DNA of 61,056 nucleotides. Origin: a virus (lineage: Duplodnaviria > Caudoviricetes). Shown here piece after piece: positions 1 through 31,269 of the stretch (position 1 is its first letter; each line of letters opens with the position of its first letter). Position numbers and translations under genes: made by a program. Location of the stretch: positions 1 to 61,056 of IMG/VR virus record IMGVR_UViG_3300043256_000368; one strand, written 5' to 3'. The notes under the pieces were generated by a model. The model made no database searches. It saw only the letters and a list, made by a program, of their open reading frames with translations, and had not been told where the DNA came from.

Positions 1-75
1 ACCCTGCGCGCGCGGGGACCAAATTAGGAGTTTTCAGTTACCCACCTTTTTCAGATGCCAGAAATCGCGCGATTA

Positions 76-465
76 TTACGTTTTTTCGTCCATTTGCGCG
101 CGATTGTGTGCCATTTGCGCGCGATCTTGCGCTGTTTTGAGATCGTGATGATGCCAGCACAGGGATTGGAGATTATCGAGCGAATTTGCGCCTCCGAGCC
201 CGAGCGCGAGGATGTGGTCCACGGATTCGGCTGGCCGGCCACACGTTTCGTGCTGACATATAGGGTTTCGCTGGAGCCTGATGCTCCGGAGTCTCTCGTA
301 GGCTCGGGTGTAGCCGCGGGCGCGCGAGTGGGGTCGTTGGCGAGAAAAGTCGGGTTTCTCGGGGGTCGTTTTCTTGGCGCCGGCGTGTTTTGCGCAGAAT
401 TGACCGACGATGGCTGGTTCGGAGCACCTCGAGTAGGCACACAGGCTTTGTGTTCGCCTCTTCAC
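76..465 (-). CDS. HNH endonuclease, phage packaging-associated type
   Basis: RGYTRAYERLR...PICQHETC...VDHILALGLGGANSLDNLQSLCWHHHDLKT is the typical terminase-associated HNH pattern. GTG start chosen at 465, downstream of an extended -10. Confidence 0.9.
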   Translation of the reverse strand: MKRRTQSLCAYSRCSEPAIVGQFCAKHAGAKKTTPEKPDFSRQRPHSRARGYTRAYERLRSIRLQRNPICQHETCGRPAESVDHILALGLGGANSLDNLQSLCWHHHDLKTAQDRAQMAHNRAQMDEKT

Positions 466-480
466 GTTGGTATTGTAGCA
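466..480 (-). promoter_or_regulatory. Extended -10 promoter (TGcTACAAT) for a leaderless HNH transcript
   Basis: Minus strand reads TGCTACAAT-accaac-GTG; no SD upstream of the GTG. Confidence 0.5.
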
Positions 481-805
481 ACAGGTTTGCGAGTCCCACC
501 TATAGGCCCCAGGGGGGAGGAATTGCCCTGGCGCTTCCCCCGGGGCGACGGTTATGTAAGCCAATTCCGATTCGTATGCACCTGCTTTACCGTAGTTCGA
601 AGCACAATTTCCGGAGACTATCCTGGGCAATCATCCCGTATAGTTGTCGCGGAGTGGGCTGAGGCGGACTGTAGCGAGCCGAGCTGGGCTGGGAAGGCCC
701 ATTCCTGCAAACATCCGGCGATCGTCGCCTACGCGTCGATTCTATGCGTCCTGGAGCATCCTGGCGCCGTTGGTGGCTGGCGATCAGTTCGATGTGTCGG
801 AGTCG

Positions 806-1018
806 TTTCTTTTCTTGTCTGCCTTTGTGTGCAAACACCATTCTGCACCATGGTGTTTTTATACCATAGATACCAACCAGGATGGTAGACTCCGATTTTC
901 GGAGTGTGCCCACTCCGATTTTCGGAGTGGGGGTACTCCGATTTTCGGAGTGGGGTTACATTGATCCTCTGGATATCACAGAAGAATTCACAGGACGAAC
1001 GTCGGAGCGGTTCAGATC
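806..1018 (-). repeat. Diverged inverted copy of the origin segment of the replication initiator gene, with 3 intact palindromic iterons
   Basis: Reverse complement aligns to ~12210-12440. ACTCCGATTTTCGGAGT occurs at 889-905, 912-928 and 935-951 (23-bp period). Confidence 0.92.
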
Positions 1019-1078
1019 GGTGTACGGGAGGACCCGATGCGGAGGCGATTCCCTCGTAAGAGGGCGCGTAAATGACGC

Positions 1079-2194
1079 TCACCGGAAGTTGTTTTGGATT
1101 GCGGCGTAGTCTCTGAGGTCCACGAACCCATCGAGGTGCCGATCGAAGGCTTCGCAATCTTCGCTGGCATCTATATCGGGGCCGGCCACGCACGGCGCGA
1201 AAAACTCGAAGGCGAGGATGCTCTCGATGCGGAGGAGGAGGCAGATTATCAGATCGTATGGTGGCGATGGTTGACGACGGGCCTCGCCTGTGGCAACAAT
1301 GTGCCCGTGTCGATTGATTCCCCAGGCAATAGAAAGACTGACATTACTAGGCTTCGCGGTCACCGTATTGAGGTTGTACGGCGATCCACTGATCCACACT
1401 ACGGGGTTCGTCTCTGTAGACTTCTCCAACTTCTCCACACAATAGCCGACTATTTCGTTCGCGGTGGTTAGATCGGTCAGATGAACGGTATCGCATCCGG
1501 GCAATCCCAAGAACTCGATCCGTTCGGTGCCTTTCCATCCAATTCCAAAAGGCCTACGCCACAGGTCGCCAATAACGAATCCATCTTCGCCGATTCCAAC
1601 TGCGAACTCGCTCGAATCGCCGAACAGGATGAGGTCATCGTCAGTCAACAGAAAATTGGTCGGAAGCCCCGACTCGGCAACGTGGCCAACGATCATTCCG
1701 TCATCGTTAATATCGACCGCTTTACCGCCATAAATGAAAGATCTGGAATCGACCGTCCAGCGGACCGAGACTTGGTTGCAATCTCCAACGGCAATGCGAG
1801 CGTTGTTCATAGCGTTAACGTTCTGCGTCCACCAGCTTGGGGCAGGCGCTGGACATCCTAGGTCGATAAACTCAGTACCGTCGTAGATGAAGCCACTCCC
1901 AGAGATGTCTCCGCGATCATTCATGTCAGTGACGTGGTGATCGATTGGAGAGAATGGAAGCTGACGCGGATGCCAATCTTTCCAGAGAAGGTACGCGCTA
2001 CCGCGCTCATCGGTCGCACGAGCGATGACATCCCCGCGGGCGTTTACCGGTATAATTAGCCAAGACAAACGTATTAGCGGGTAGATGTATCCGCCGCCCG
2101 GGTTTGGCAATTCTCGGTAGAGGTAGTGGGGCGGTTCGGCCAATGCGGAAGATCCCCACACAGCTAGCCCCAGGCAGGGACCGATCAACCGCAT
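1079..2194 (-). CDS. Secreted HAF-repeat-like protein with C-terminal dockerin-like motif
   Basis: Signal peptide MRLIGPCLGLAVWGSSALA; repeated (I/M)N(D/N)xGxIVG motifs; C-terminal CEAFDRHLDGFVDLRDYAAIQNNF. Confidence 0.8.
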   Translation of the reverse strand: MRLIGPCLGLAVWGSSALAEPPHYLYRELPNPGGGYIYPLIRLSWLIIPVNARGDVIARATDERGSAYLLWKDWHPRQLPFSPIDHHVTDMNDRGDISGSGFIYDGTEFIDLGCPAPAPSWWTQNVNAMNNARIAVGDCNQVSVRWTVDSRSFIYGGKAVDINDDGMIVGHVAESGLPTNFLLTDDDLILFGDSSEFAVGIGEDGFVIGDLWRRPFGIGWKGTERIEFLGLPGCDTVHLTDLTTANEIVGYCVEKLEKSTETNPVVWISGSPYNLNTVTAKPSNVSLSIAWGINRHGHIVATGEARRQPSPPYDLIICLLLRIESILAFEFFAPCVAGPDIDASEDCEAFDRHLDGFVDLRDYAAIQNNFR

Positions 2195-2427
2195 CTCACC
2201 GATTCCTTCAAGTTCGATCCCGCCGGCGTGATCTCGAGCACGGCCGAGACCGGATCCGAGAGCCTGCCCCCTTCTTGGACCCAGCAACCCATTAAGTCAA
2301 CTGTGTGGGGATCCAGGTCCCGTCCGTCATAGGCGACCAGGACGCGGCCGTCCTCGATCGAGACGATCAGGATCGGGTAGGTTGCAGTGCCGGCGAAGTC
2401 GATGTCCTTGACGGCGTTGCGATTCAC
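2185..2427 (-). CDS. Hypothetical protein
   Basis: GTG preceded by GGAGG; 3' end overlaps the start of the downstream gene. Confidence 0.45.
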   Translation of the reverse strand: MNRNAVKDIDFAGTATYPILIVSIEDGRVLVAYDGRDLDPHTVDLMGCWVQEGGRLSDPVSAVLEITPAGSNLKESVRCG

Positions 2428-2556
2428 TCTTGACCTCCAGCGTGATCTTCACGTAGGGACCGGACGCCCCAGAACCGTCCTGGAGGGATGGTAGCGAGCC
2501 GGACGGAGGGCTGCAACGACAATCACACATAATAGCGATTTTTATCGTGATTTGTC

Positions 2557-2585
2557 TTGACGGCCCGGCCGGGCTGGCCTAACTT
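2557..2585 (+). promoter_or_regulatory. Sigma70-like promoter TTGACG-N17-TAACTT, leaderless for the 2592 ORF
   Basis: -35 at 2557-2562, -10 at 2580-2585, ATG 6 nt later. The spacer holds the palindrome GCCCGGCCGGGC. Confidence 0.6.
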
Positions 2586-2591
2586 GCGGGC

Positions 2592-2828
2592 ATGGCAACG
2601 GACCCAACGGCTCCGATAACGCTCAAAGCTACGGTCGCAGACGGGAAATACGTCGACGTGATGCGGAGGGCGACGGAGCTGGCCGACGATGACCTGGGGA
2701 CGCGGGCGAACGCCCTATACGTGATGGCGCGTGCTGGCATGGAAACCCCGAGGTTCAAAAAGGCCAAAAAGGTCAAAAAAACCAGGCTAGGGAACATCCC
2801 TAGCCGAAACGGGAAACCCTCTAGGTAG
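2592..2828 (+). CDS. Small basic protein, possible transcriptional regulator
   Basis: 78 aa, Lys-rich C-terminus, sits at the strand switch behind a leaderless promoter. Confidence 0.55.
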   Translation: MATDPTAPITLKATVADGKYVDVMRRATELADDDLGTRANALYVMARAGMETPRFKKAKKVKKTRLGNIPSRNGKPSR

Positions 2829-2876
2829 TCCTATAAAATGGAGGTTTTCGGAGCGCGGAATATGTCCGATAAGGGA

Positions 2877-2904
2877 GTACTACGTAACATATATTATGCG
2901 ATAA
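2877..2904 (-). other. dif/XerCD-like recombination site
   Basis: Minus strand TTATCGCATAA-TATATG-TTACGTAGTAC has the 11-6-11 layout of E. coli dif GGTGCGCATAA-TGTATA-TTATGTTAAAT; located in an AT-rich intergenic patch. Confidence 0.6.
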
Positions 2905-2907
2905 AAT

Positions 2908-2924
2908 GTGCCACAACGTGGCAC
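2908..2924. promoter_or_regulatory. Palindrome GTGCCAC-AAC-GTGGCAC, candidate operator or accessory site
   Basis: Perfect 7-bp arms immediately next to the dif-like site. Confidence 0.45.
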
Positions 2925-3099
2925 TTTGTTGCGTGACACTCTCTGGCACTACCGAACGTGGCGCGATTCGGAAATGAGAAATCATTATACATCACTCGCA
3001 AAACGCGGCCTCCCTATTTTTGAGGGGACAGACGTTTGTGCGTCCTACGGGGATGAACGACGTTTGAGTCGAGAGCGCTCGGAAAACCTGAAATGTGAC

Positions 3100-3660
3100 G
3101 ACGGGTGTCACCAGAACAGGTGACAGCGCAAGGGACGGAGCCTTGAAGTGTTAGTGATTTCTATCCGGTCGTGTCTGCGTATCCGCAGTGTAGCAGATGG
3201 CAGCGCGGCACACTCTGGATGATTGCCGTGTTTAAGGAAGATGTCTTGAGGGCGCGGGAGACAGACCAACAACCGAGTATCCTGGTCGTCCGACCCCTGG
3301 CGAGTCGCCATGGGACGTTCCAAAGTCCTCGGCTTCTTTCCCCTCCGACCCGGGTGTGTTCCCCTTCGGGGGGGCCGCCCGGGCTTGATTTGAACCTACC
3401 GGCGGGTCCGACGTTCGTTTCCTCGTCTCCATGCGAAATGGCCCATACCGCGCCCCGAGGGTACGTCAAACTGTCGTGTACGCGGGTCGGCTCGACCATG
3501 GCCCCCGGATGTCGTCGGGCCCGTCGTTCATTTTCGGCAAACCTTTCGTTTTGGGTTCGGGGCGAGTCGGCTTCACGAAATCTAAACCCCCTCGTGGGAC
3601 GGCTCTCCCGAACACTTTGAAGATGGCCCCGTGGGGACGTTCCCTTCGGGGATGGAATAT
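3100..3660 (+). ncRNA. Candidate structured RNA or long structured leader
   Basis: Several hairpins, including two cUUCGg tetraloop stems (3349-3383, 3638-3653) and a long stem 3554-3613; no convincing CDS. Confidence 0.4.
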
Positions 3661-3682
3661 TCAGGAAAAACGGAGTGATACG

Positions 3683-4054
3683 ATGAAAAAGATCATGGCG
3701 GCGATGTTGGCTTTGAATACGTTGGGCATCGGACTCTGTACCGGAGCGGGGTTGATGGCCGTGGCGGGATGTTCGTACTCCCACAAGGTGACGGGAGGTA
3801 CGAAAATCCATGCCGAAGTTGCAGGAACGGAGGACGATAAGGCGGCGTTAAGCGCGAAGTTGGAGATGACTGATTACAGCTTGGTTCTCAAGGGAGATCC
3901 ATTGGCCTTCTTCAATCGGGTCGTCCAAGACATCGGATCGTTCGTGGGCGGGATAATTTCCCAGTTCACGAAGCCGCGCACAACACCGGCACCGTCAAGT
4001 GCGCCGGTGTCAACAGACGCGACACAGCCGGATGGAGTGTCCGGAACGTCGTGA
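3683..4054 (+). CDS. Predicted lipoprotein
   Basis: MKKIMAAMLAL...MAVAG|C lipobox; GGAG SD at 3672. Confidence 0.7.
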   Translation: MKKIMAAMLALNTLGIGLCTGAGLMAVAGCSYSHKVTGGTKIHAEVAGTEDDKAALSAKLEMTDYSLVLKGDPLAFFNRVVQDIGSFVGGIISQFTKPRTTPAPSSAPVSTDATQPDGVSGTS

Positions 4055-5277
4055 ACTCCGACCTGGCCACAATCGAAGCCAAGCCCCCTCGTGCCGCGAA
4101 GGAATCGACGGTGAGACTCGTCGTAGTTCCCTCCGCACGAGAGGGGCAGCCAGCCAGCGTTGGTTTGGTGCGGCTCGGTCCGCGTGGACTGATTAGGTCA
4201 GTTCAAACGACCGTTCAACTCGATGATAAGCTAGGTCACCTTTATGACCTGGGCAGCCACGGCGGCATGAACATTTCGGCCCATGGTTGTAATCACATCA
4301 ACAAGGCGATGGGTGTGACTCGCTACATGCCACCGACGCTTATTGGAGACGATGGGAAAATCCACTCTAATCCTTGGGTCGTGCGTGACCGCGGGAATAC
4401 CATCAAGCGCATCAACGTTCGTATGTGCGGATTCGGTCGAAATGCAGTCGCCAGTTGGCAACTCGTCGTCACCACCCTCTACTACGATCTGGACCCGATG
4501 CTCGCCCAGGACGTGATGAATAAATGGCGCGTCTGGGACGGAAAGGACAAACCAAAGCTCAAACGTGATTGGGGCACGTTGCTGTCCTCGGAAAATGTGC
4601 CAGACGCGGACAAGCATGACAAGACGAAAAAGTGCATCGTGATCCCACCGGGATTCGTTCTCGTCGTTGACTTGTCTAATGATGAAGTCCTGGATCTCAT
4701 CGAAAATCACGTTCACAGGATCAGATTTTGTACCCGACTCGCCGAAACAATCGCTTGGCGTCGGATCCTAACCGTATTCATTGGGCAACAGAAGCTCGAC
4801 CCAAAGAACCCGAGTGTCGTGGTGACTTCGTGGCCGCAATCGGACCGCGAGGGCATGAGCGACATCGAGGAACTGGTCCGACAAGCCGCCAGCGGACAAG
4901 CCATGGTCGATGGTGAGCCAGTGCAATTTCAGGCAGAGACCGCGAAATTGGAGGATGTCGAAGAGGCCGACCTCGAATTGCACTCTGAGCGCGACGACGG
5001 CGGTGGTGGTGGCGCTTCCGCTTCTCCATCCGGCGCGCCCGGCCAGGCTGGGGACCGCGACCTTCCGCTTGCGAGGACTCAGATCAAAACGTACGCGAGC
5101 AAACTTCCGCCTGATGTCGTCGACCGCATTTTGGGAGAGGCCGGTTTGAGCGGCATCAACGAAGTGATGACGACGGGCGATATTGATCTGTTGCGCCAAG
5201 GTGGTGAAGCACTCAGGCAGGCGATCGATCGACGCGCTGGAAGCAAGTCGGGCGGGCAACAAGAATTCAGTCGGTAA
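4051..5277 (+). CDS. Hypothetical protein, possibly a recombination/ssDNA-annealing protein
   Basis: 408 aa, coupled to the upstream gene, acidic/Gly linker plus small C-terminal domain; function inferred only from position before the SbcC-like and UvrD-like genes. Confidence 0.55.
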   Translation: MNSDLATIEAKPPRAAKESTVRLVVVPSAREGQPASVGLVRLGPRGLIRSVQTTVQLDDKLGHLYDLGSHGGMNISAHGCNHINKAMGVTRYMPPTLIGDDGKIHSNPWVVRDRGNTIKRINVRMCGFGRNAVASWQLVVTTLYYDLDPMLAQDVMNKWRVWDGKDKPKLKRDWGTLLSSENVPDADKHDKTKKCIVIPPGFVLVVDLSNDEVLDLIENHVHRIRFCTRLAETIAWRRILTVFIGQQKLDPKNPSVVVTSWPQSDREGMSDIEELVRQAASGQAMVDGEPVQFQAETAKLEDVEEADLELHSERDDGGGGGASASPSGAPGQAGDRDLPLARTQIKTYASKLPPDVVDRILGEAGLSGINEVMTTGDIDLLRQGGEALRQAIDRRAGSKSGGQQEFSR

Positions 5278-5280
5278 TCC

Positions 5281-5541
5281 ATGACCGCAGAACTATCAGC
5301 CGAACAACGAGAACAACTTGCGTTGGCGCAGGGCAGAGCGCAAGAATTGCGGGTCGACGAAGATCCGCGAAAAACTGCGGCGAGGAAGGAAGCGCAAAAG
5401 GCAGCCGATCGCACCCGGAAATATCACTTCTTATGGGGCTGGGAGTACCTAGACGGCCAGCCAACCACTTACTGTTTCGATCTGAAACCTCCGACAACGG
5501 TTGGGTACGAGACCATCCGACCCGCCAAATTGGAGGGATGA
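5281..5541 (+). CDS. Hypothetical protein
   Basis: Fits between operon neighbours. Confidence 0.55.
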   Translation: MTAELSAEQREQLALAQGRAQELRVDEDPRKTAARKEAQKAADRTRKYHFLWGWEYLDGQPTTYCFDLKPPTTVGYETIRPAKLEG

Positions 5542-5563
5542 TTTTTCGTATTTGGTGAATTCC

Positions 5564-7816
5564 ATGCTGATAAAGACGCTCACGCTAACGCAGTTCAAGG
5601 GCATAACCGGTTCAAGGGCTTTTGGTCCCTTGAACATACTCGTCGGTCCCAATCGTTCCGGTAAGACGGCGCATGCACAAGCGATACAACTCGCGCTTAC
5701 CGGTGCGGTCGACGTCGGTGCAACGCTCGACGCCATTCAGCAGCTAGGGGGAGCGACCGGGTTGGGCGTACAGGTGCAATTGGATGACGGGTTTGGGTGG
5801 TCACGCGAGTTACGCAGGGACAATCTAGTGGGATCGCTTTCAAGGGGGGTGAAAGTCTTTGGCAGGGAGCAGCTCGGTCTCAAAGAGGCACAGGCAGCGG
5901 TAGTTGCTCACGTTGGCGACTTCGCCACGATTCTGGATGTGAGTGTATTTCTCGGTTTATCTGCTGATAGGCGCCGAGATTACGTGTTGGACCTTTGTTC
6001 TCGTGCTATGGGCGTTCCCATCGTGGCAACGGCAGTCTGGAATGATATCGCAATCGAATTCTGCCGCGAACGGGAAGGAATGTTGGGAATCGATGCGCTT
6101 AAGGATGCCGGATTGTCGGCCGCAGAAATCGTGCGGAAACTGCCCCCCGAAGTCCAGGTCGCCCTTGGCAAGATAGAAGTTCAAATCATACCCACCCTCC
6201 AGGGCGATTTGTCCATGTCGATCCAGGCGGCCCTTGTTCAGGCTAAGGAAATCACCTCGGCAAGTCGTCAAGCGGCTATCGGTGCGTCCGAGAGTGTCCG
6301 AACGATGACGGACCGACGGCAAGAACTCCAAACCGTTGCGGAATCCACGGAGGAAATGAGCGCTCGTATCGAGGCTCATCAAAAAACGAAGGATGGAATC
6401 GTTCATTCTCTAGGGGCCATCACGGGTATTAAGGCGAGCGAGGAGGATCTGCGAACGCGGATTCAACAGGCCGGAGAACGTGAGAGCAAATGGCAGATGA
6501 CTGTCGATGCGCTAGGGACTGATCCAGATAGCAAGATAGTCGAGAGCATCCGAGAAGCCGAACAAAAGGAACAGGCAAGTCGAGAGGTAGTCGGTTCGCT
6601 CGTTGACGTGACCCAGGAGACCGTCCATGCCAAGCAGCAAGAGGCGATCGGGAGTACACGCCTTGCAGATCAGGCGCGGCGCCTTGTAGTTGAACTCAAA
6701 GAATTTTCGTCGAATGCGTGGCGCAGGGTACACAGCCTGGCGGAGACCGTCCACGATGGTTGGGGTGGTGTATTAGACGACTGCCCGGAATGGGCGTCTC
6801 TGCGCGATCAGGTTCGCGGTAACGCCGAACGGCAGTGCCCATCAAATCTCCCCAGCGGCGCTTTGCTCAAAGTGAATGATCTCTCGCCCGAAGCCGAACG
6901 GCGCCTCACGGAGCTAGAGGCGGTTCAGCTTCAAACAGATCGAGATGCGACAAACGAACTGGCGCAACTGACCAAAAAACTAGAGGCGACGGAGCACCAA
7001 GGATCATTCCATCGTCGGGCGGGCGAGTTGAAGTTGACGCTCCAGCAGCAGTCCGAAGAACGGTTGACGGCTTCGGAACACGTCCAAACAGCCACAAAGG
7101 ACCGCACGGATTGCGAGCGTCAACTGGTCGAATTGACGGTGAAAGCCGAGACTGGTGTTGGCGAAGCCGCCCTCCAGGAGCAACTAGGGGCCGTCCACGC
7201 AGAAATTCTTGCTTTGGGCTCGCGAATTGACGCCAAACGCGCCGAGGTCGCGCTTGTGCGAGAGTTGACGGTGACGATTGCACGCGCGACGGCCGAGCGC
7301 GTTCTGAACGATGTTTCCAAGAAAATCGAGTCTGCGATCAAAATACTCCGCGAACGCCTCATGCTGGAGTTGATCAGTCCACTACTGGTTCGGATCAACC
7401 ATTTCTTGAAAACGGGTGAGCCCGGTTCACGCGCCTATTGCGAACTGGTGAATCTTCGCCAACGTCCTATTTTCGAATTGGGTTTGATCCAGGATGGCCG
7501 TTCACGAGTGTCCCTGCCCGCGATGAGTGGCGGTCAGTCGTGCGTTTTCTGTACTGCCCTTCTGTTCGCCCTGATGGACCTAGCGGACCCGCCCTTGAAG
7601 ATTGTCATCGTAGAGGTGGACCGCGCTGACGTTAAAACGTTTCCCGCCATCATTGGAGCCATAGAGGCTATGGCGAACCGCATGGTGGGCGGAGTGCAGG
7701 TTTTTGTCCTGACGCACCGGTTGCCGCAAGACATCTCACTGGAAGCGTGGGATGTGCACGTCCTCGGTGAGCCAATCAAAGACGACAGGGTGGTTCACGA
7801 AATAGAGACAACTTAA
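5564..7816 (+). CDS. SbcC/Rad50-like ABC ATPase with coiled coil
   Basis: IKTLTLTQFKG, Walker A GPNRSGKT, long coiled coil, signature MSGGQ, C-terminal VLTH. Confidence 0.85.
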   Translation: MLIKTLTLTQFKGITGSRAFGPLNILVGPNRSGKTAHAQAIQLALTGAVDVGATLDAIQQLGGATGLGVQVQLDDGFGWSRELRRDNLVGSLSRGVKVFGREQLGLKEAQAAVVAHVGDFATILDVSVFLGLSADRRRDYVLDLCSRAMGVPIVATAVWNDIAIEFCREREGMLGIDALKDAGLSAAEIVRKLPPEVQVALGKIEVQIIPTLQGDLSMSIQAALVQAKEITSASRQAAIGASESVRTMTDRRQELQTVAESTEEMSARIEAHQKTKDGIVHSLGAITGIKASEEDLRTRIQQAGERESKWQMTVDALGTDPDSKIVESIREAEQKEQASREVVGSLVDVTQETVHAKQQEAIGSTRLADQARRLVVELKEFSSNAWRRVHSLAETVHDGWGGVLDDCPEWASLRDQVRGNAERQCPSNLPSGALLKVNDLSPEAERRLTELEAVQLQTDRDATNELAQLTKKLEATEHQGSFHRRAGELKLTLQQQSEERLTASEHVQTATKDRTDCERQLVELTVKAETGVGEAALQEQLGAVHAEILALGSRIDAKRAEVALVRELTVTIARATAERVLNDVSKKIESAIKILRERLMLELISPLLVRINHFLKTGEPGSRAYCELVNLRQRPIFELGLIQDGRSRVSLPAMSGGQSCVFCTALLFALMDLADPPLKIVIVEVDRADVKTFPAIIGAIEAMANRMVGGVQVFVLTHRLPQDISLEAWDVHVLGEPIKDDRVVHEIETT

Positions 7817-7822
7817 ACAGCT

Positions 7823-9682
7823 ATGGAATTGACCAGAGAACAACGGGACGCGGTAAAGACGAACGCCTGGGAGGTCGTCGTGATCGCCGGTGCCGGTAGC
7901 GGTAAGACTCGTGTGATCACCGCACGCATTCGCCACCTACTCTCGAAAGGGGCCTCGCCCAGCGAGATTCTCGTGCTGACGTTTACCCGCAAGGCGGCTG
8001 GTGAGATGCGCGATCGCCTTGAACAATCGATAATGGCCGACGGTGGTGACGTCCGTCGCTCCACAAACGGGTTGCTGATGGGGACGTTCCACTCGATCGC
8101 CCTGCACATCCTCCGGCAAAGCGGGCACATGATTGGGTACACGACCGGCACCATCACCATGTTGGATCCGGCCGACGCCGACCTACTTCTGGAAGATTGC
8201 TGTCGGGACATCGGGCTCATTCAAACGGACATCGACGGAACCGATCATTGGTCATTCGGTCTCTCGTGGAAAGCTGTGCGAAATGCGCGCGAAAAGCTGT
8301 ATCAGACAGGCGATGAACCCGGCAATCGACACCTAGCGACCTTGATGCGTCGGTATCAGTCCGAGATGTTCGGCATGAACGTGGTCGACTTCGGGACTCT
8401 TTTGGTTCAATGCCACCGAGTTCTCGAAATTCCGAAGGTGCGCGCCGGCTGGCAGGCAAAGATCCGGCACGTACTCTTGGATGAGGCCCAGGATTGCGAC
8501 ACGATGCAATACCGGCTCCACAGATGTTTCGCACCGCCGGCGACGTTCTTCTCGGTCGGGGATACCCGTCAGTGCATCTACACGTGGCGAGGCGCTCGAC
8601 CCGACCTGATGGTCACGAAGGAGCACACGCGCACGACACCGTTAGCGATTCACTCCTTGACAACCTGTTTCCGATCCGGGACCGAGATCGTCCGGTGTGC
8701 AAACAATCTGATCGCCAACAACGTCGATCCCTTGGTTCATCCGATGGTCAGTGCCCACGACTGGCCGGGAGAGGTTTCGCTTCAAATCGGTCGATCGCAG
8801 GATGTGGCTGAACTTGTCAAGCGATCGCACGGCGGTGGGTGTGCCGTTGATAGGACAGTACCGTTCTTCGGCTGGAGTGACATAGCCGTCCTCTCCAGGA
8901 GGCACCTACCGCTCAAATCGCTAGGTCGGTGCTTGGACGAGATGGAGATCCCTTTTCAGCACGTCGGCCGAGGGTTCGAAGTCTGCCAAACGGAAGAATT
9001 TCGCCAGATGCACGCATGTTTGCGACTGGCAATCAACGACCGCGATGAGATGGCCTTTCGACGGGTGCTCGCCATCTATGACCCTAACTGTCATCCGGTA
9101 TACACACGAATTCGAGCACGCGCATCGGAATTGGGTATCCCGAGCGTACAGTTCTTATTATCAGAACGAGACACGTATACGGCGGATGTCCGCGCGTTGA
9201 TTGCGGCCGTTACCAAAGCTGCCCAGACGCAGACGATTGGCGAGTTGATGCCGGGGCTTCGCGCCCGTCTCCCGGACCACGGGGTTGCAAGCCAAAACGC
9301 CGAGTGGTTCTGGATGAACCACTGTTTCGAGTTGACGGTTGCGGACGCTCTGATGTGGTATGGCCTGTCCGACGCGCAAGATGACATCCGGGATGGAGAC
9401 CACGTCACCCTGTCAACGATCCACGCGGCGAAGGGACTCGAGTGGCCGTTAGTAATCGTGCTCGATCTCAACGAAGGAAATCTGCCGTCCTCGCAATCGG
9501 TCAAAGACGCCAGGCTGGTACCTGATGAACGCAGAGTGTGCTACGTGGCCATGACTCGTGCGAAAGAACGGCTGATCTTTCATTACCGCACACGGAACGA
9601 ACAGAAGGACCGAGTTCAACCGCCGTCTCGCTTTCTGGATGAGATCCGTTGTGACGAAGGGGCGCTGACCCCGGAGGTGTAG
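7823..9682 (+). CDS. UvrD/PcrA-like SF1 helicase
   Basis: AGAGSGKT, TFTRKAA, GTFHS, LLDEAQD, VGDTRQCIY, STIHAAKGLEW, YVAMTRA. Confidence 0.95.
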   Translation: MELTREQRDAVKTNAWEVVVIAGAGSGKTRVITARIRHLLSKGASPSEILVLTFTRKAAGEMRDRLEQSIMADGGDVRRSTNGLLMGTFHSIALHILRQSGHMIGYTTGTITMLDPADADLLLEDCCRDIGLIQTDIDGTDHWSFGLSWKAVRNAREKLYQTGDEPGNRHLATLMRRYQSEMFGMNVVDFGTLLVQCHRVLEIPKVRAGWQAKIRHVLLDEAQDCDTMQYRLHRCFAPPATFFSVGDTRQCIYTWRGARPDLMVTKEHTRTTPLAIHSLTTCFRSGTEIVRCANNLIANNVDPLVHPMVSAHDWPGEVSLQIGRSQDVAELVKRSHGGGCAVDRTVPFFGWSDIAVLSRRHLPLKSLGRCLDEMEIPFQHVGRGFEVCQTEEFRQMHACLRLAINDRDEMAFRRVLAIYDPNCHPVYTRIRARASELGIPSVQFLLSERDTYTADVRALIAAVTKAAQTQTIGELMPGLRARLPDHGVASQNAEWFWMNHCFELTVADALMWYGLSDAQDDIRDGDHVTLSTIHAAKGLEWPLVIVLDLNEGNLPSSQSVKDARLVPDERRVCYVAMTRAKERLIFHYRTRNEQKDRVQPPSRFLDEIRCDEGALTPEV

Positions 9683-9683
9683 G

Positions 9684-9956
9684 ATGATGGCACACATGAG
9701 CACTATGGATCGGGCCATTGGAGCCGCTATCCTTCTTGCCCTCCTCGCGTGGGTGTGCCTCGCTCCGCGGCGTGACGGCAAACCACCGCATTTTCGGATC
9801 GTCGATGATCCACGGTTAAAGGTCCAGGTTCAGTTCGAGTGGAAGGATTTGTGGGTCGGCGCCTTCGCGCGTAGATCGCAGGTCGGCCTCCACATCTACA
9901 TCTGCCTCATTCCCTGTTTCCCGATCCACGTCACGATTGCGAGGTTCCCGAAATGA
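9684..9956 (+). CDS. Hypothetical membrane-anchored protein
   Basis: N-terminal hydrophobic helix; DLWVG...YICLIPCFPI. Confidence 0.6.
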   Translation: MMAHMSTMDRAIGAAILLALLAWVCLAPRRDGKPPHFRIVDDPRLKVQVQFEWKDLWVGAFARRSQVGLHIYICLIPCFPIHVTIARFPK

Positions 9957-10138
9957 CCTCGCATAACAGTAGACGACGCCGTTCCCGGTTGCCGGATCAG
10001 GTGGTTGTGCACGCGGACGGCAGTTTTTCACCACTGCCGCCTTCGCTCAAGCGCTGTACGGAGTGCGGGGAAATGTGTTTGGTGGGTTGGGTTCACTGCT
10101 ATCCGTGTGGAGCACTATTGCCACGTAACAAACGATGA
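9953..10138 (+). CDS. Small zinc-ribbon protein
   Basis: CTECG...CYPCG; ATGA overlap with the upstream gene. Confidence 0.55.
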   Translation: MTSHNSRRRRSRLPDQVVVHADGSFSPLPPSLKRCTECGEMCLVGWVHCYPCGALLPRNKR

Positions 10139-10490
10139 AAAAGGGAGGGACGATCCACAAATGGCTGAGATGGGAAGAACTCCCTCTGGACGACCGTCGT
10201 GGTTGGGCGGCATGTGGTGTCAATCTACTGGCGCACGGAAGGTACAGAAAATCTTGGAAGGGCGTCAGGTGCAAGAACTGTCTCCGCCGTAAGACCACGA
10301 CAAGGACCTAGACGGGAGCGGCGCGGACGTCCAGCTTCGACAACGCGGCCAACTGGTCTCCTCGCGGTAAGCCGCAGCGTGGAGACATTTGCGTATTCCC
10401 GGCAAGCAGCGTGGTGGCCCAAGCAGTCGGTCAGGAACCGACCGTGTTGGAGCGAATCCACGTGGACCGGCACTGTGGGAGGATCGGTCG

Positions 10491-10793
10491 GTGAAAACTA
10501 CCTTGAAGCAAATCGGGCAAACTGTGGAATGGCTGTCCGATGTTAAGGACTTCTTGGAGGCGATGCGCTTACTTGCAAACGTGACGCTCGGCCTGCCGGC
10601 ACGGTTGCGTTTCTTTCACCGGAGTTGGTACACCTGCACGTTTTGCGGTCACAGGTTCAACCGGGAACTTCATATTCCGAACAAGGCTGCGCGCCGGCAT
10701 CCGCGCACGGATGGCTCGCATAGGCGTTACGCTGGTTGGAATCCTCCGGATCAAGTTACGTGGTGGTGTCCTGTTTGTTTACCCATTGATTGA
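10491..10793 (+). CDS. Hypothetical Cys-motif protein
   Basis: GGAGG before GTG; CTFCG and CPVC motifs. Confidence 0.5.
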   Translation: MKTTLKQIGQTVEWLSDVKDFLEAMRLLANVTLGLPARLRFFHRSWYTCTFCGHRFNRELHIPNKAARRHPRTDGSHRRYAGWNPPDQVTWWCPVCLPID

Positions 10794-10805
10794 GGAGCGG
10801 ATTTT

Positions 10806-11033
10806 ATGCTAAGAGAAGAACTGCATGTCGGGTTGCCCGTCAAGATTCGAATGAGAATAACGGGGCGATATGAGGTGGCGCGTGTCATCCATATTCCGAC
10901 GACCGCCGGTGAGCAAGTCAGGCTAAGTTGTGGGGATAGGATGATTCACCGACACGACGGTGACATCGAACCACGTGACTATGTTCCCCCGGATCGCGGT
11001 CCAAGAATCGATGTGCAACATGGTTGCCGGTAA
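10806..11033 (+). CDS. Hypothetical protein
   Basis: GAGGAG SD upstream. Confidence 0.55.
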   Translation: MLREELHVGLPVKIRMRITGRYEVARVIHIPTTAGEQVRLSCGDRMIHRHDGDIEPRDYVPPDRGPRIDVQHGCR

Positions 11034-11065
11034 GCCGGCGATCCAGATCGAGGAGTAACCCGTGG

Positions 11066-11138
11066 TGCGGGGTAGAGCAGTTGGTAGCTCGCTGGGCTCA
11101 TAACCCGGAGGTCGCAGGTTCGAGTCCTGCCCCCGCTA
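11066..11138 (+). tRNA. tRNA-Met(CAT), initiator type
   Basis: Cloverleaf with acceptor GCGGGG/CCCCGC and a T1:T72 mismatch, anticodon loop CT-CAT-AA, three consecutive G-C pairs in the anticodon stem, T-loop TTCGAGT; CCA not encoded. Confidence 0.95.
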
Positions 11139-11187: not shown

Positions 11188-11733
11188 ATGGCTACCGATC
11201 TCGGACCTTGTTGCGTGTGTGAATCCAACGTTGATGTCTACGTTGTCATGCTGCCCGTGAGGGGCTTGGTACCCGGCCATGGCTGGGGATGTGTCGTCTG
11301 CGGTTTACGTGCTGACGGAGCGTTGGCCGTGCTTTGTCGCATTTGCCTTGGCAGACAACCCGTCTACGCATGTCAGGGATTCCTGGGTACGGAGGCGCGG
11401 GTTTCTATTGAGGAACTCCGAAAGCCACACACGCACCGCGCATCGAGGCATCCTGAACTATGTGGACAAACAACTGCCCATCCGGGCGGGGAGGCGCCTC
11501 TAGGTGATGCGGAATTCGTCAGAGTCGCAACGGTGCGCTTCTTGGATCAGCGACTTGCGAGGGTCGAGGAAAGGATGCGGCGGTATGAGACCCACATCAC
11601 CGCCCTGGAAGATCGGTGTGCTAGTCTTGAGCAAGCTTTTCCGATCGAAGCCGGTATCGCCCAACGCAGATCACCGCCGGCGCCTCCCAATGAAACTACC
11701 ACCCAGCGTGCGCCGGAGTCACTATCACGATGA
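11188..11733 (+). CDS. Hypothetical Cys-rich protein with C-terminal coiled coil
   Basis: CCVC, GWGCVVCG and CRIC motifs; AAGGAG SD. Confidence 0.65.
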   Translation: MATDLGPCCVCESNVDVYVVMLPVRGLVPGHGWGCVVCGLRADGALAVLCRICLGRQPVYACQGFLGTEARVSIEELRKPHTHRASRHPELCGQTTAHPGGEAPLGDAEFVRVATVRFLDQRLARVEERMRRYETHITALEDRCASLEQAFPIEAGIAQRRSPPAPPNETTTQRAPESLSR

Positions 11734-12842
11734 ACCAACCGGCCCAGCGTCCAGCGAGCGCCACCCGCGGGCGTTGGCACAACCACCTTCCGGAGTGGGT
11801 TGAGGCGTCCGATCTCTACGCGCGGCTGCCGCAAACCGGCAAGAGGTTTCTCCAGGCGGTTGCCGATGCGTGTCAACCACCAGGCCCCGACGGATCCCTC
11901 GTGGGTGCGTTCGGTGGCCACCAGTTGATTACGAGCATCGGATGCCAGCCGTCGACGTTTTGGGCCTACGTCGAGCTATTGGAAGCGGTGGGACTGCTCG
12001 TGACGCTCAATCGTGGCGGCCGGTTGACGTTCAGGGTTGGCGGTGACACTCGCAACGTCGGCAACGTCTACGGGATTCCTGGCACGCGTGGAGCGCTGAA
12101 CGCGCGTCGTTGCCAGAGGGAAGTGTGTCGCATGGTTCGGACGGCCGACGGTGCTCTCCATCGACAAGTGCTGCAGCCGGGAACGCAGGCGACACTCTGG
12201 CATCCCGACGACCTGAAGCCCGAAGCGCCACCTGTGCATTGCTCTGTGAAGTCTCCCGAAATCGGAGTGGGGGTACTCCGAAAATCGGAGTGGGGGTACT
12301 CCGAAAATCGGAGTGGGGGTACTCCGAAAATCGGAGTGGGGGTACTCCGGGAATCGGAGTCTACCATCCTGTCTGGTATCCCTGGTAAAAAAACCATGGT
12401 GCGGAGAGATGGTGTTTGCACACAAACTCACAGAAAGAAAGTTCCCCTGGCCGATCTCGTGAAGGCGGATCTGACGAACACCGGCCGGCTAATGACGCTA
12501 TTTGCAGAGGCCGTGCAGAACGGGCTGATCGACGATACGGAGGCGCGCCAACTCGATTGGGTTGGGATGGCCGAACGTGCGATCCGGGTTGCTCGAAACC
12601 CCGTAAAGATGTTCGTTTCAAACATCAAGCACGGTGACCGTTGGCACTTTATCGCCATCGAAGATGAACAAGCCGCACAAGGACGACTCAAGCAATATCG
12701 CCATGACGACGGCCAGGCAGACGACATGGAGGGCGAAGACCCTCGACTTGTCGGCGGAGATTTTCGTCGTCTATTGATTGCCGAATTGGAGTTGGAACAA
12801 ACAGGAACAGTGAACGGCCGCCCCGGGGCCGCACCCCGATAA
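11730..12842 (+). CDS. Replication initiator-like protein with internal origin (lambda O-like architecture)
   Basis: N-terminal HTH-like region (LITSIGCQPSTFWAYVELLEAVGLL), central iteron array, helical C-terminal domain. Confidence 0.75.
   Translation: MNQPAQRPASATRGRWHNHLPEWVEASDLYARLPQTGKRFLQAVADACQPPGPDGSLVGAFGGHQLITSIGCQPSTFWAYVELLEAVGLLVTLNRGGRLTFRVGGDTRNVGNVYGIPGTRGALNARRCQREVCRMVRTADGALHRQVLQPGTQATLWHPDDLKPEAPPVHCSVKSPEIGVGVLRKSEWGYSENRSGGTPKIGVGVLRESESTILSGIPGKKTMVRRDGVCTQTHRKKVPLADLVKADLTNTGRLMTLFAEAVQNGLIDDTEARQLDWVGMAERAIRVARNPVKMFVSNIKHGDRWHFIAIEDEQAAQGRLKQYRHDDGQADDMEGEDPRLVGGDFRRLLIAELELEQTGTVNGRPGAAPR
12252..12360 (+). repeat. Iteron array, putative origin: 5 x palindromic ACTCCGAAAATCGGAGT separated by GGGGGT (23-bp period)
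   Basis: Units start at 12252 (degenerate), 12275, 12298, 12321 and 12344; followed by an A-rich tract and a DnaA-box-like GTTTGCACA. Confidence 0.9.
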
Positions 12843-21420: not shown

Positions 21421-21488
21421 CGGTGCCGGTGATCGAGTGGTTAGCGCGGAGGATAATGGCCGTACAGATGATGGAAGATTCCGGATGA
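20403..21488 (+). CDS. C5-cytosine DNA methyltransferase, frame carrying catalytic motifs IV-VIII and X
   Basis: GGFPCQD, IENVPG, FGVAQRRRRVFIVG, RYRALGNAV; motifs I and IX are absent from this frame. Confidence 0.85.
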   Translation: MAGGNGQVLSGSAEAAVPALHADIRDVGRHNLQLCDVLVGGFPCQDLSVAGKRAGLSGKRSVLFWEFVRVARELRPTWLVIENVPGLLSSNGGRDMGAVIGGLEDAGYCCAWRVLDSQWFGVAQRRRRVFIVGHADARCAGAVLFEPEGGAGHPATVRKAGTDITHALDAVTGGVSAKENQQTIIPYTIHGTRSGESRDPQRTERHEPLCARSPSPSRQGNQSATVIAYNVVGTGQEGANHAYATDRTGALQHKGNAASGNEAGTVIAYTLRENDRNKSQGPANLVGYALNAHGGSHERIDGESETFVGAPPHAHRVREATGLPPGMDGKRYRALGNAVTVPVIEWLARRIMAVQMMEDSG

Positions 21489-22447
21489 GCAATATCGCAT
21501 GGACAAATAGGACCTGGAACCCGGTCACGGGATGCAGTGCGGTGTCTGAGGGGTGTACGTATTGCTACGCGGCAAAGATGACCAAGCGGCTCGCGTCGAT
21601 GGGAACTCCCGAATACCAGGACCTGCTGCACGAGCACCACTTCAACGGCAAGGTGAAGTGCCACGAGCACAAGCTGGAAATCCCGCTGCGTTGGGAAAAG
21701 TCGCGCATGGTTTTCGTCAACTCGATGAGCGACCTGTTTCACGAAGCGGTGCCATTCGGGTTCATCGACAAGGTGTTCGCGGTGATGGCGTTGCGTCCGC
21801 AGCACACGTTCCAAATTCTCACGAAGCGCCCGGAGCGGATGGCGGAGTATTTGTGCTCCCGATCACATCCAGAACACGGCCAAGACGATCTTATTCACGG
21901 TGATTATGTGCCAGTGGCGATGGAGAAGCTGGGAGAAGATTACTCGTTTGCTGCGGAAATGATTTGGCCGCTCCCCAATGTCTGGCTCGGCACGTCGTGC
22001 GAGGATCCGAAGACGCTCCATGAACGAGTGCCACACTTGCTCAACTGTCCTGCAGCTGTGCGGTTCCTGAGCCTCGAGCCGTTGCTTGGGGAGACCATTC
22101 TGCATAAGCATCTCGCCGAGTGTGGATGTGGCCACGGGCATGGGTTTACGGCCTGCCCCAACACTGGCGGCGTCGCCAAGACCTGCCATCGTTGCGACTG
22201 CATGAACGTGAATCCGAAGATCCAATGGGTCATCGTCGGTTGCGAGTCGGGTGCGAAGCGTCGGCCATGTCGCTGGGAGTGGATCGATTCAATCGTCGGT
22301 CAGTGCCGGGATGCGGGCGTGTCGGTGTTCGTGAAGCAGCTTGCGACACAATCGGATGGGTCTGGCACGGTCTACAAGCACAAGCCGGGCGACGACTGGC
22401 CAGCGTGGGTGGCACCTAGCCTAAGGGTTCAGGAGTTTCCGAAGTGA
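21485..22447 (+). CDS. Phage Gp37/Gp68 (DUF5131) family protein
   Basis: TWNPVTGCSAVSEGCTYCYA, VFVNSMSDLFH, QILTKRP, FLSLEPLL, WVIVGCESG, FVKQ. Confidence 0.9.
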   Translation: MSNIAWTNRTWNPVTGCSAVSEGCTYCYAAKMTKRLASMGTPEYQDLLHEHHFNGKVKCHEHKLEIPLRWEKSRMVFVNSMSDLFHEAVPFGFIDKVFAVMALRPQHTFQILTKRPERMAEYLCSRSHPEHGQDDLIHGDYVPVAMEKLGEDYSFAAEMIWPLPNVWLGTSCEDPKTLHERVPHLLNCPAAVRFLSLEPLLGETILHKHLAECGCGHGHGFTACPNTGGVAKTCHRCDCMNVNPKIQWVIVGCESGAKRRPCRWEWIDSIVGQCRDAGVSVFVKQLATQSDGSGTVYKHKPGDDWPAWVAPSLRVQEFPK

Positions 22448-29337: not shown

Positions 29338-31083
29338 GTGCATCCTGGACCGTCGATGGTAGCCGCGAAAAGTCCGCGAAAACGTCGCACACCGGTCAAG
29401 AAGCCCCGTACTCCATCCAAACCAAGTCGTCTCGCCAAGGCGAAACTAGCATTCGTAGAGCAAGGCGCCGACTGGAAAACCTGGGTTCGCAACGGAAACG
29501 ATGAGCGGGCAGCGTTCGAGGGGTGTGTGCCCGACGTTCTCGAAGCAGATAAGAAAGTAGCCTTTTTCGAGGAAGTCCTTGTCCTGACCAAGGACGGTCC
29601 GGTTCGGCCTTTCAAACTCGCCCCGTTTCAGGAACACGCCATCATCCGCCCACTGTTTGGCTGGAAGCGAGCCGACGGCCGGCGACGTTTCACCCACGCC
29701 TCCATCTGGATGCCACAAGGCAACGGGAAAACGACGTTAGCCGCAGGCATCACCGCGGTGCTCCTGTTGGCCGACGGTCAACGACGGGCCAAAATCTATT
29801 CCGCCGCCAACGACCGGGACCAGGCCGCATACATTTTCGATGAGTTGGCGATGATGGCGACCTGCTCCCCGATTCTGAAAAACCGTCTGAGTATCTGGAA
29901 GTCCACCAAAACCATCGTCTACAACGAAGTCTTGAACAGGTACAAGGCGATTTCCGCTGACGCCGCCTCCGCGGAGGGCAAGGCGCCGCACGGTCTAGTG
30001 ATCGATGAGATTCACGCATTCAACGACGCGGGCCGACGTCTCTTCGAAGCCCTCAAGTTCACGATGACGAAGTGCTTCAACAGCTTATGGGTGACGATCT
30101 CCACCGCCGGCAGAGCAATGGAGGGGATCGGGTGGGAGGAATATCAAAAGGCCCGCTCCGTTTGGGCCGGCCAGAACGAAGAGTCTTGGTGGAAATTCGT
30201 CTTTATCGCGGAAGCCGCAGTCGAGGATGATTGGACGGATCCGAAGGTTTGGAAGTCATCGAACCCGGCCATGGGGGTCACAATCACCATGGATCGTATG
30301 AAAGAGGACTTCCTGGAGGCATCACAATCGCCTCACGATGAGCTTATCTTTCGGCAGCGAAGGCTAAATCAGTGGACCAGCATCTCGGAGGATTTCATTC
30401 CGGCGAAGGCCTGGGACAAGTGCGGACGTGATCTGACGTTGGACGATTTGAAGGGAAAACGTTGCTGGGCCGGGTTGGATCTGTCGAGCGTATCCGACAC
30501 CAGTTGCCTATGCCTGGTGTTCAAACTGGAGGCGGACCTTCCTTTTGTGTGGCCGTTCTTCTGGATCCCCAGGTACGACAAGGTGAATCGTCCGCGCTCG
30601 GATATTGCTGAATTCATCGCGTGGGGGCACGCGGGTCATATCGAAGTGGTCGAGTCAAATGTGATCGACTATGCCGCCATCCGGGCCAAGATCAACGTCC
30701 TGAGAACGGAGTTCGGAGTCGAGGGGGTGGCTGCGGATCCGATGTTCGCCGGCCAGCTTCTACAGGAGCTCGAGGACGACGACCGAATACCGTCCTATGA
30801 GCACAAACAGAATTTCACTCAGATGACGGAACCGTGCCTGGATTACCAGCGCCGGTGCGTTTCGCAGAGATTGGCCCATGGCCGACATCCGGTACTTGAT
30901 AACCAAATGAGTCATGTCACACTGAAGAACGGGCAGGGAGACACGGTGATGCCGAAACGCGACAAAAGCCGCTGGCGAATCGACGGGCCTGTGGCGGCCA
31001 TCATGGCTCTGAATATGTTTATCAAGTTCAAGGACAAGCCTAAACCCCGCGGCGGGATGACTCGAGGCGTCGTATGGGTCTAA
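29338..31083 (+). CDS. terL: Terminase large subunit
   Basis: LAPFQ, PQGNGKT, VIDEIH, ISTAG, GLDLSSVSD, RIDGPVAAIMA. Confidence 0.95.
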   Translation: MHPGPSMVAAKSPRKRRTPVKKPRTPSKPSRLAKAKLAFVEQGADWKTWVRNGNDERAAFEGCVPDVLEADKKVAFFEEVLVLTKDGPVRPFKLAPFQEHAIIRPLFGWKRADGRRRFTHASIWMPQGNGKTTLAAGITAVLLLADGQRRAKIYSAANDRDQAAYIFDELAMMATCSPILKNRLSIWKSTKTIVYNEVLNRYKAISADAASAEGKAPHGLVIDEIHAFNDAGRRLFEALKFTMTKCFNSLWVTISTAGRAMEGIGWEEYQKARSVWAGQNEESWWKFVFIAEAAVEDDWTDPKVWKSSNPAMGVTITMDRMKEDFLEASQSPHDELIFRQRRLNQWTSISEDFIPAKAWDKCGRDLTLDDLKGKRCWAGLDLSSVSDTSCLCLVFKLEADLPFVWPFFWIPRYDKVNRPRSDIAEFIAWGHAGHIEVVESNVIDYAAIRAKINVLRTEFGVEGVAADPMFAGQLLQELEDDDRIPSYEHKQNFTQMTEPCLDYQRRCVSQRLAHGRHPVLDNQMSHVTLKNGQGDTVMPKRDKSRWRIDGPVAAIMALNMFIKFKDKPKPRGGMTRGVVWV

Positions 31084-31262
31084 TTATCTCAGCCATCCGG
31101 AACCTGGCTTTTCTGGGGGGCTTGGGTCTACTGTATTGGGGCCTTTCCGGCATCGATCCTCGTTGGGCAAAGGTCGCCGTTGGAATCATCCTGCTCGTTC
31201 TGGGTGTCCTGTCGTCACGAGGACGCGCTCAGAAGCCCGTCGACCCGAGGAGTCATTTGTGA
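31074..31262 (+). CDS. Small two-TM membrane protein
   Basis: Two hydrophobic helices; lies between terL and portal. Confidence 0.65.
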   Translation: MGLIISAIRNLAFLGGLGLLYWGLSGIDPRWAKVAVGIILLVLGVLSSRGRAQKPVDPRSHL

Positions 31263-31269
31263 GACTGCG

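Follow-up and report, generated by a model that had tools for sequence, protein, structure and literature searches.

Why would a tailed phage carry, 11.3 kb from the origin-like DNA inside its putative replication initiator gene, an inverted copy of that same DNA? We examined this question in the IMG/VR virus record IMGVR_UViG_3300043256_000368, which comprises 61,056 bases, is classed as 'linear', lacks end repeats and has a CheckV completeness estimate of 100%. The whole record is called the window below, and the two copies are called left and right after their positions in it.

Setting and structure of the two copies

Pfam and PHROG scans recognised the genes of a tailed phage, including those for both terminase subunits, the portal, an S49 head protease, the major head protein and the tape measure. 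The early region encodes an SbcC-like ATPase and a UvrD-type helicase, and DNA methyltransferase genes are also present. Among the 48 ORFs scanned, no integrase, partition or protelomerase family was matched (Pfam and/or PHROGs). The features that frame the two copies are as follows.

76-630, minus strand: HNH endonuclease ORF, downstream of the left copy on the minus strand (Pfam HNH, E 2.4e-6)
1079-2287, minus strand: P0002, a 402-aa ORF flanking the left copy on its upstream side on the minus strand
11066-11138: tRNA-Met gene, the single tRNA gene
11730-12842, plus strand: P0001, putative replication initiator gene, 370 aa
27550-28050: terminase small subunit gene (Pfam/PHROG scans)
29338-31083: large terminase gene, TerL (Pfam/PHROG scans)
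31180-33396: portal gene (Pfam/PHROG scans)

The left copy sits between P0002, a moron-like gene, and the HNH endonuclease gene, whose ORF scored 28 bits against a Pfam cut-off of 21.4 and lies 180 nt away. The P0002 product, called at 281 aa in the source annotation, looks secreted and repeat-containing and had no family match in Pfam or PHROG. A homologue of it, P0158, is 74% identical and is encoded on a 62,168-base contig, possibly from a sister phage; this contig was not found in the viral contigs or in 401 genomes of the class, and a search of 279 genomes of the order returned no more than one weak, unrelated match. P0001 is also encoded, identically, on a 68,345-base contig. We infer that the host is a planctomycete, because relatives of the initiator gene sit in MAGs titled Phycisphaerales and Phycisphaerae. 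The first-pass annotation had set the left copy 'near the packaging end', and this description was dropped, as the terminase genes lie at 27.5-31 kb and the ends of the 'linear' record are undefined.

The right copy lies in the middle of P0001, and its parts are as follows.

12231-12249, plus strand: upstream CCTGTG...CTGTGA pair, read directly
12252-12360, plus strand: five iteron slots at a 23-bp period, all spacers GGGGGT
12361-12441, plus strand: AT-rich flank with CTACCATCCTG, TGGTATC, TGGTA, an A-run, ACCATGGTGC, ATGGTGTTTGCACACAAA and an AAGAAAG tail

Three of the five slots, at 12275, 12298 and 12321, hold the 17-nt site ACTCCGAAAATCGGAGT exactly, while those at 12252 and 12344 depart from it by 3 and 2 mismatches, respectively. 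The right copy thereby combines the design features of an in-gene origin, namely phased direct repeats in mid-gene, an AT-rich flank and a specificity that varies among relatives. The stretch of this DNA that encodes the linker of the initiator lacks the GC pattern of coding sequence. The right module is a predicted origin within the initiator gene, in the style of lambda O or pSK41 Rep. Such an origin would consist of the CTGTGA pair, phased initiator-binding sites, ACCATC boxes, an AT-rich patch and a CCATGG/ATGGTG..TTGCA block.

The left copy repeats this arrangement on the opposite strand.

976-994, minus strand: upstream CCTGTG...CTGTGA pair, from the sequence as read; 16 of 19 bases as in the right copy
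958-975, minus strand: decayed first iteron slot, TATCCAGAGGATCAATGT, assigned by eye; counterpart of the degenerate first slot of the right array
951-935, 928-912 and 905-889, minus strand: three exact 17-nt cores at a 23-bp period
805-888, minus strand: downstream blocks CTACCATCCTG, TGGTATC, TGGTA, an A-run, ACCATGGTGC, ATGGTGTTTGCACACAAA and AAGAAAAGAAA

A second, inverted, non-coding copy of the origin had been claimed in the first-pass annotation, and our alignment bears this out: 805-1018 on the minus strand aligns to 12210-12441 on the plus strand. BLAST of 12200-12450 against the record matched 824-951 (minus) to 12298-12426 (83% identity, E 1.4e-33), and a local alignment of 951-811 with 12298-12440 gave 121 identical columns out of 146. 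With the CCTGTG..CTGTGA pair included, the similarity reaches about 1018 in the left copy and about 12210 in the right. The named motifs were likewise recovered in both copies: CCTGTGnATTnnTCTGTGA at 994-976 (minus) and 12231-12249 (plus), and CTACCATCCTG, ACCATGGTGC and ATGGTGTTTGCACACAAA in the downstream flanks. The left downstream blocks are all identical to those on the right, and only the bases between blocks differ. The AT-rich patches beside the arrays are short and moderately AT-rich (63-67%, right and left), and the AT-richest 30-nt frame stands at the 98.7th percentile of the window in the right copy and at the 99.5th in the left.

The 17-nt site occurs exactly three times in the left copy (935-951, 912-928 and 889-905), as it does in the right. 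With up to 3 mismatches allowed, it was found at 8 places in the 61 kb, 3 in the left copy and 5 in the right, and nowhere else; shuffled sequence gave a mean of 0.26 matches, and none of 100 shuffles reached the observed count. These sites had been described as three perfect 17-bp palindromes. The exact repetition and the 23-bp period were confirmed, but the perfect symmetry was not: the site consists of 7-bp inverted arms around AAA and differs from its own reverse complement at 3 positions.

Comparison of the iterons with their flanks, which had been proposed as a check, showed that the changes between the copies fall outside the cores. None of the 51 core bases had changed, whereas 15 of the 18 spacer bases had (Fisher p 1.4e-12). 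The left spacers preceding the three cores read AACCCC, ACCCCC and GGGCAC, and ACCCCC is the exact reverse complement of the right spacer GGGGGT, so two left spacers may have been inverted between the flanking inverted arms. With each such inversion counted once, the changes amounted to 0 of 51 in the cores against 6 of 18 in the spacers (p 1.5e-4). The left array is also shorter, with 3 good sites against 4 to 5 on the right, and it no longer has the G-run spacers found in most relatives. Overall, the differences between the copies avoid both the repeated cores and the blocks conserved in the family. This block-wise pattern fits selection on the DNA sites, as had been suggested; the suggestion holds for the pattern itself but not for its place of origin, as the selection could have acted in a donor gene before transfer.

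To all appearances, the left copy is non-coding. In a tblastn search with the initiator against positions 1-3500 of the window, only residues 167-237 were matched, at 1031-810, and neither the N-terminal nor the C-terminal domain gave a match at E < 0.1. One frame is open across the copy (ORF 729-1193, minus strand), and neither it nor the other ORFs across the copy matched Pfam or PHROG above threshold. The GC content of this ORF at codon positions 1/2/3 was 0.56/0.57/0.50, compared with 0.58/0.44/0.69 in TerL, and the ORFs crossing the copy lack the GC1>GC2<GC3 pattern of this phage's genes. With the left copy excluded from its construction, a profile of the iteron-independent block recovered 888-844 (minus) with an E of 2.3e-4 in 220 kb, which comprised the window and the related loci. 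Judged by ORF orientation, the polarity of the module relative to its same-strand neighbours is equal in both copies, with P0002 and the HNH ORF on the minus strand and the initiator on the plus strand. The GC skew had no turning point at either copy; it was positive throughout and tracked transcription. A promoter and terminator scan of 1-4200 returned nothing at the left copy.

The putative initiator and its relatives

We modelled P0001 with AlphaFold2 on an alignment of 72 sequences (mean pLDDT 78). The model predicted, with confidence, a winged-helix domain in the N-terminal part (about residues 20-170) and a helical C-terminal domain (about 240-328), joined by a disordered linker (about 175-235, pLDDT < 50) that is encoded by the repeat array. 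The layout in the model is one of a DNA-binding domain, an origin-encoded linker and a second domain. The top 7 rows of the Foldseek search were chains of staphylococcal plasmid RepA, all weak matches (E about 0.03); the rows for 4pt7, 4pql and 5kbj had E values of 0.01-0.15 in two models and a target TM of about 0.5, and concerned the N-terminal domain. VIA-align returned a generic winged helix only (residues 20-122, Z 7-8.6). The N-terminal domain filled the result lists, and these fold searches barely probed the C-terminal domain.

At the sequence level, P0001 matched no Pfam family (E up to 0.01) and no PHROG, Phage_rep_O and RepA_N included, and a profile search against PDB sequences returned nothing below E 1. 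Among the 72 aligned family members, 19 matched HTH_11 and 16 matched HTH_24, both generic helix-turn-helix families. A profile built from five relatives found 1873 cluster representatives at E up to 0.001, of which 128 were at E up to 1e-30. These proteins define a large unnamed initiator family that has no Pfam model, with a predicted in-gene origin whose specificity varies between relatives, and the family should help the annotation of origins in Planctomycetota phages and prophages.

Known initiators offer two close parallels. In phage lambda, the origin lies inside the initiator gene O and comprises four phased sites of inverted symmetry, with an AT-rich region after them; O protein binds DNA through its N-terminal domain and recruits the helicase loader through its C-terminal domain. 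To our knowledge, lambda has a single origin. P0001 resembles lambda O in having its predicted origin inside the initiator gene and differs from it in lacking a Pfam Phage_rep_O match. For the plasmid pSK41, the passages on its ori describe four Rep boxes in the centre of rep, bound by the N-terminal domain of Rep, and a central linker that is encoded by ori and is dispensable (PMC5703833). The central in-gene ori, the N-terminal DNA-binding domain and the ori-encoded linker are thus shared with this RepA_N type as those passages present it, but P0001 has no Pfam RepA_N match and its structural match is weak. The same passages describe no distant second copy of ori (PMC5703833).

The relatives were collected by alignment-based scans, which yielded 12 metagenome loci, 2 genome loci and 1 viral locus. 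A tandem array with a period of 22-24 bp was found in mid-gene in 11 of these 15 loci, and the other four hold only the N-terminal part of the gene; the two relatives in one genome (G165) have two such sites each, in the homologous gene. Together with the predicted winged-helix, linker and helical parts, these arrays support the earlier placement of the right copy within an initiator gene. The dyad cores differ among the relatives (L010, L011, L013, L014, L016, L018, L022, L023, L042 and L071), and the spacers are mostly G-runs. After the array, the relatives share a block with one or two ACCATC(Y)n boxes, ATGG, an A-run and CCATGG, often followed by ATGGGG..TTGCA. TCACAG/CTGTGA motifs lie upstream of the arrays in five of them (L011, L012, L022, L042 and L071). 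In L014, rep is followed about 2.9 kb downstream by an HNH homologue.

A survey of relatives for dual arrays, also proposed earlier, found none among the loci examined. No iteron match (up to 2 mismatches) occurred outside the in-gene array in any of 10 related loci; most of these contigs are short and the absence of a second array is weak evidence there, but G001 and G165 were searched whole. In G001, an 8.5-Mb MAG, only the in-gene sites stood out (14 matches, against 20 for a reversed-pattern control), and a DNA search with the whole module returned nothing else below E 0.5. In G165, the sites of both relatives were found only in their genes, with 0 control matches. A second copy was therefore seen in none of the three full-length relatives with whole-genome context (the one in G001 and the two in G165). 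The block profile run over the 220 kb likewise recovered one module per relative and no second, the single-protein scan of viral contigs gave no relatives with dual arrays, and the exact iteron pair was absent from all other viral contigs searched. These results indicate that the dual arrangement is a peculiarity of this phage and not a property of the family. Because no relative examined has a second copy, the family appears to replicate without one.

Possible roles of the left copy

The arrangement itself is already known: its direct precedent, missed in the first-pass annotation, is the oriL/oriR pair of Bacillus phage SPP1. As described in the passages on its origins, SPP1 has its oriL inside gene 38, the gene for the origin-binding protein gp38 (G38P), and its oriR, at a distance of 12-13 kb on the circle, occupies a non-coding segment that also holds three moron genes (PMC6316719, PMC3485210). 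Each origin combines repeats with an AT-rich unwinding element and is bound by gp38; the protein bound at oriR has been proposed to stall the fork and so bring about the switch from theta replication to concatemers (PMC6316719, PMC3485210). In the SPP1 record, we found a second occurrence of 48 nt of gene 38, at 4901-4948, with 87.5% identity and in direct orientation.

The left copy is, as a predicted site, laid out in this dual-origin manner, with the same organisation as the in-gene module, a distance of kilobases and no apparent coding function. An origin in the initiator gene and a non-coding second origin beside one or more moron genes, kilobases away, are the points of likeness with SPP1 as those passages describe it. 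The differences are equally clear. The SPP1 copies are direct repeats whereas those of this phage are inverted, and the shared stretch is 48 nt in SPP1 but about 210 nt here. Homology between P0001 and gp38 is not demonstrable (pairwise blastp, best E 0.001, 34% identity over 44 residues), and the host phylum differs, with the relatives of P0001 in Phycisphaerae MAGs. In the SPP1 passages, binding is shown and fork arrest is proposed, whereas in this phage both are putative.

On this comparison we lean, with modest confidence, towards the left copy being a maintained second initiator-binding, origin-like site that acts in replication. The three exact 17-nt cores suggest that the initiator binds at both copies, and at the left copy the resident initiator would act in cis on replication. 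By analogy, the copy could be a secondary origin, or initiator bound to it could form a barrier at which forks arriving from the in-gene origin stall. Such a stall would help the phage to pass from circle-to-circle to concatemer-forming replication, the role proposed for SPP1 oriR. That the left copy fires or arrests forks is an inference, as is selection at its present location. A site for the full origin complex is favoured over mere titration because the whole non-iteron part of the origin is intact, and not the binding sites alone. If so, an in-gene origin with a non-coding copy, known from SPP1, would be present with the copy inverted in a group of phages that has received no study. Among tailed phages, very few dual-origin systems have been resolved, and what SPP1 oriR does is itself still described by a model. 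The present phage, unrelated to SPP1, would add a clean second case from nature, with the whole origin module duplicated and a clear footprint of conserved blocks.

The main rival, and a serious one, is that the left copy is a non-functional, decaying relic. It would be a fragment of a rep gene, either the phage's own or that of a close relative with the same iteron specificity, inserted beside the HNH gene by illegitimate or homing-associated recombination. The footprint could then reflect selection in the donor origin before transfer and would say nothing about function here. The absence of a second copy from every relative examined agrees with a chance capture of this kind, as do the decayed first slot, the changed spacers and the loss of the G-runs. 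The HNH ORF 180 nt away and the HNH homologue near rep in L014 point in the same direction, and the homology begins a few bases inside the coding sequence of the right copy (GAYCTGAA), which suggests a copy derived from the gene. However, the limits of the fragment coincide almost exactly with those of the origin module, without a trace of either protein domain, and three exact cores stand beside spacers in which 15 of 18 bases have changed. Every block conserved in the family is intact, and 83% identity with several indels is too low for a recent duplication of the resident origin; the search gave no nearer donor, the iteron pair being in no other viral contig. We therefore give the relic a minority share of our belief, well short of that given to a maintained site and yet too large to neglect.

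The maintained site may also be read more boldly. The two inverted modules could form a working pair that brackets the whole early region, in which initiator bound at the left copy traps or reverses the fork set off by the in-gene origin, or pairs with that origin, and so times the switch to concatemers. We consider this fuller version unlikely. Were it true, it would amount to a convergent re-invention of the oriL/oriR logic of SPP1 in a Planctomycetota phage with an uncharacterised initiator family, and the inverted geometry, which has no counterpart in SPP1, would make the barrier polar.

Clusters of initiator sites away from an origin are also familiar from other replicons. In P1 incA, P4 ori/crr and the R6K alpha-beta-gamma system, distant clusters act in cis on replication, the modes being titration or handcuffing, a required second region, and looping. 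The incA locus of P1 belongs to a plasmid replicon with partition functions, and its extra iterons titrate the initiator or handcuff the origin. The left copy could by this precedent be a copy-number control locus of a plasmid-like prophage, in which extra iterons titrate the initiator or handcuff the origin. A cluster of exact initiator sites away from the origin is what such a locus would look like, and with no integrase among the 48 ORFs scanned a non-integrating lifestyle is conceivable. Nevertheless, no partition or plasmid-maintenance family was found among those ORFs, three sites are few, and the relatives in MAG contigs have no such locus. The clusters of P1 incA, P4 and R6K consist of iterons alone or of partial sites, and titration needs nothing more, whereas here the whole origin module is duplicated, with its non-iteron blocks and AT-rich patch. 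The incA-like titration locus put forward in the first-pass annotation thus fits less well, and we regard it as improbable.

Two further uses of the left copy, as a substrate for inverting the 11.3-kb early segment or as a decoy for the initiator of superinfecting relatives, are very improbable. The copies are indeed inverted repeats with identical runs of about 20 bases, and the sites match those of the resident initiator exactly. But the longest perfect runs, as read from the alignment by eye, do not exceed about 20 bases, and such runs at 83% identity make a poor substrate for homologous recombination. As a decoy, three sites would be weak and would drain the phage's own initiator equally.

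The integrity and orientation of the locus were examined in Logan contigs from one public run, possibly of the source sample, which provide an independent assembly but not independent data. No inverted form or inversion joint was reported among these contigs, in which rare forms would be invisible. The contigs are interrupted at the tRNA gene and, as exact 23-nt repeats would lead one to expect, within the right array (12288-12320). The break in the array is the one point in favour of a chimeric assembly, in which the left copy or its flanks would be misjoined. A chimera had been named earlier as a possible refutation, and we set it aside as extremely improbable: a single Logan contig of 11,039 bases covers 74-11112 and reproduces both junctions of the left copy with 0 differences, at an even depth of about 25 at the copy and 22-24 beyond it. 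The same contig crosses the left copy in the reference orientation, and this shows that the reference orientation is the dominant form.

The initiator family and its C-terminal domain

The putative replication initiator gene of the window (11730-12842, +) belongs to a large family (proteins P0005-P0156; alignment A4) that has no Pfam or PHROG model and is unnamed. The profile search returned 1873 cluster representatives when the cutoff was E ≤ 0.001; tightening it to E ≤ 1e-30 left 128. The origin of this family is located within the initiator gene, and the iteron cores vary from one relative to another.

Among the 301 sampled Phycisphaerae genomes, matches to the family profile were found in 38 (E ≤ 1e-10; loci L043-L070). 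Full-length matches were present only in the metagenome-assembled genomes G001 and G165, and in the majority of the remaining genomes the match was limited to the C-terminal domain (profile positions ~170-318), within ORFs of ~390-630 aa. Given these C-terminal-only matches, the C-terminal domain seems to be a separate module, fused to different N-terminal parts.

Positions of two further genes relative to the initiator gene:
11066-11138, +: phage-borne tRNA-Met (CAT) gene, ~600 nt 5' of the initiator gene
21437-22447, +: DUF5131 / phrog_2045 gene, 8.6 kb past the initiator gene

The tRNA-Met gene stacked with many unrelated contigs of X1, a public sequencing run that may be the source sample, and the depth in that bin was 1672. 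In three relatives, the DUF5131 / phrog_2045 gene lies directly 3' of the initiator gene (L022, 11370-12257; L071, 3477-3878; L024, 4599-5393).

Spacers of the left origin copy and its flanking genes

In the inverted, non-coding origin copy at the left of the window, two spacers of the iteron array (929-934 and 952-957, -) are C-runs. The left-array spacer ACCCCC and the right-array spacer GGGGGT are exact reverse complements, and the iteron centres of the left array retain the AAAA orientation. The C-run spacers look like the product of a spacer flip between the flanking 7-bp inverted arms.

On one side, this copy is flanked by an HNH gene:
76-630, -: HNH endonuclease ORF, at a distance of 180 nt

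An HNH segment 46% identical to this ORF was found in the relative L014 (6594-6800), where the initiator gene lies ~2.9 kb upstream of it. On the other side, the adjoining ORF P0002 (1079-2287, -) looks like a secreted repeat protein; read by eye, its translation seems to begin like a signal peptide and to carry a C-terminal motif resembling a dockerin. Its sole close homologue is P0158 (74% identity), from a contig of 62,168 bases, possibly that of a sister phage; this contig was absent among the contigs listed for initiator-family matches.

Repeats near the record ends

A GC-palindrome motif (TTTGCGCGCGAT-like) occurs three times at 60-131 (+), right after the HNH ORF stop and at most 130 nt from the left record end; the copies include a 21-nt direct repeat (90-131). 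The Logan contig, assembled from X1, likewise stops at base 74. The cluster could be a packaging site, a regulatory site or the reason for the assembly break.

Near the right end of the genome, an 870-aa ORF (57386-59998) contains a repeat pair:
59285-59425 and 59561-59701, +: direct repeats of 141 nt each, 276 nt apart and 79% alike
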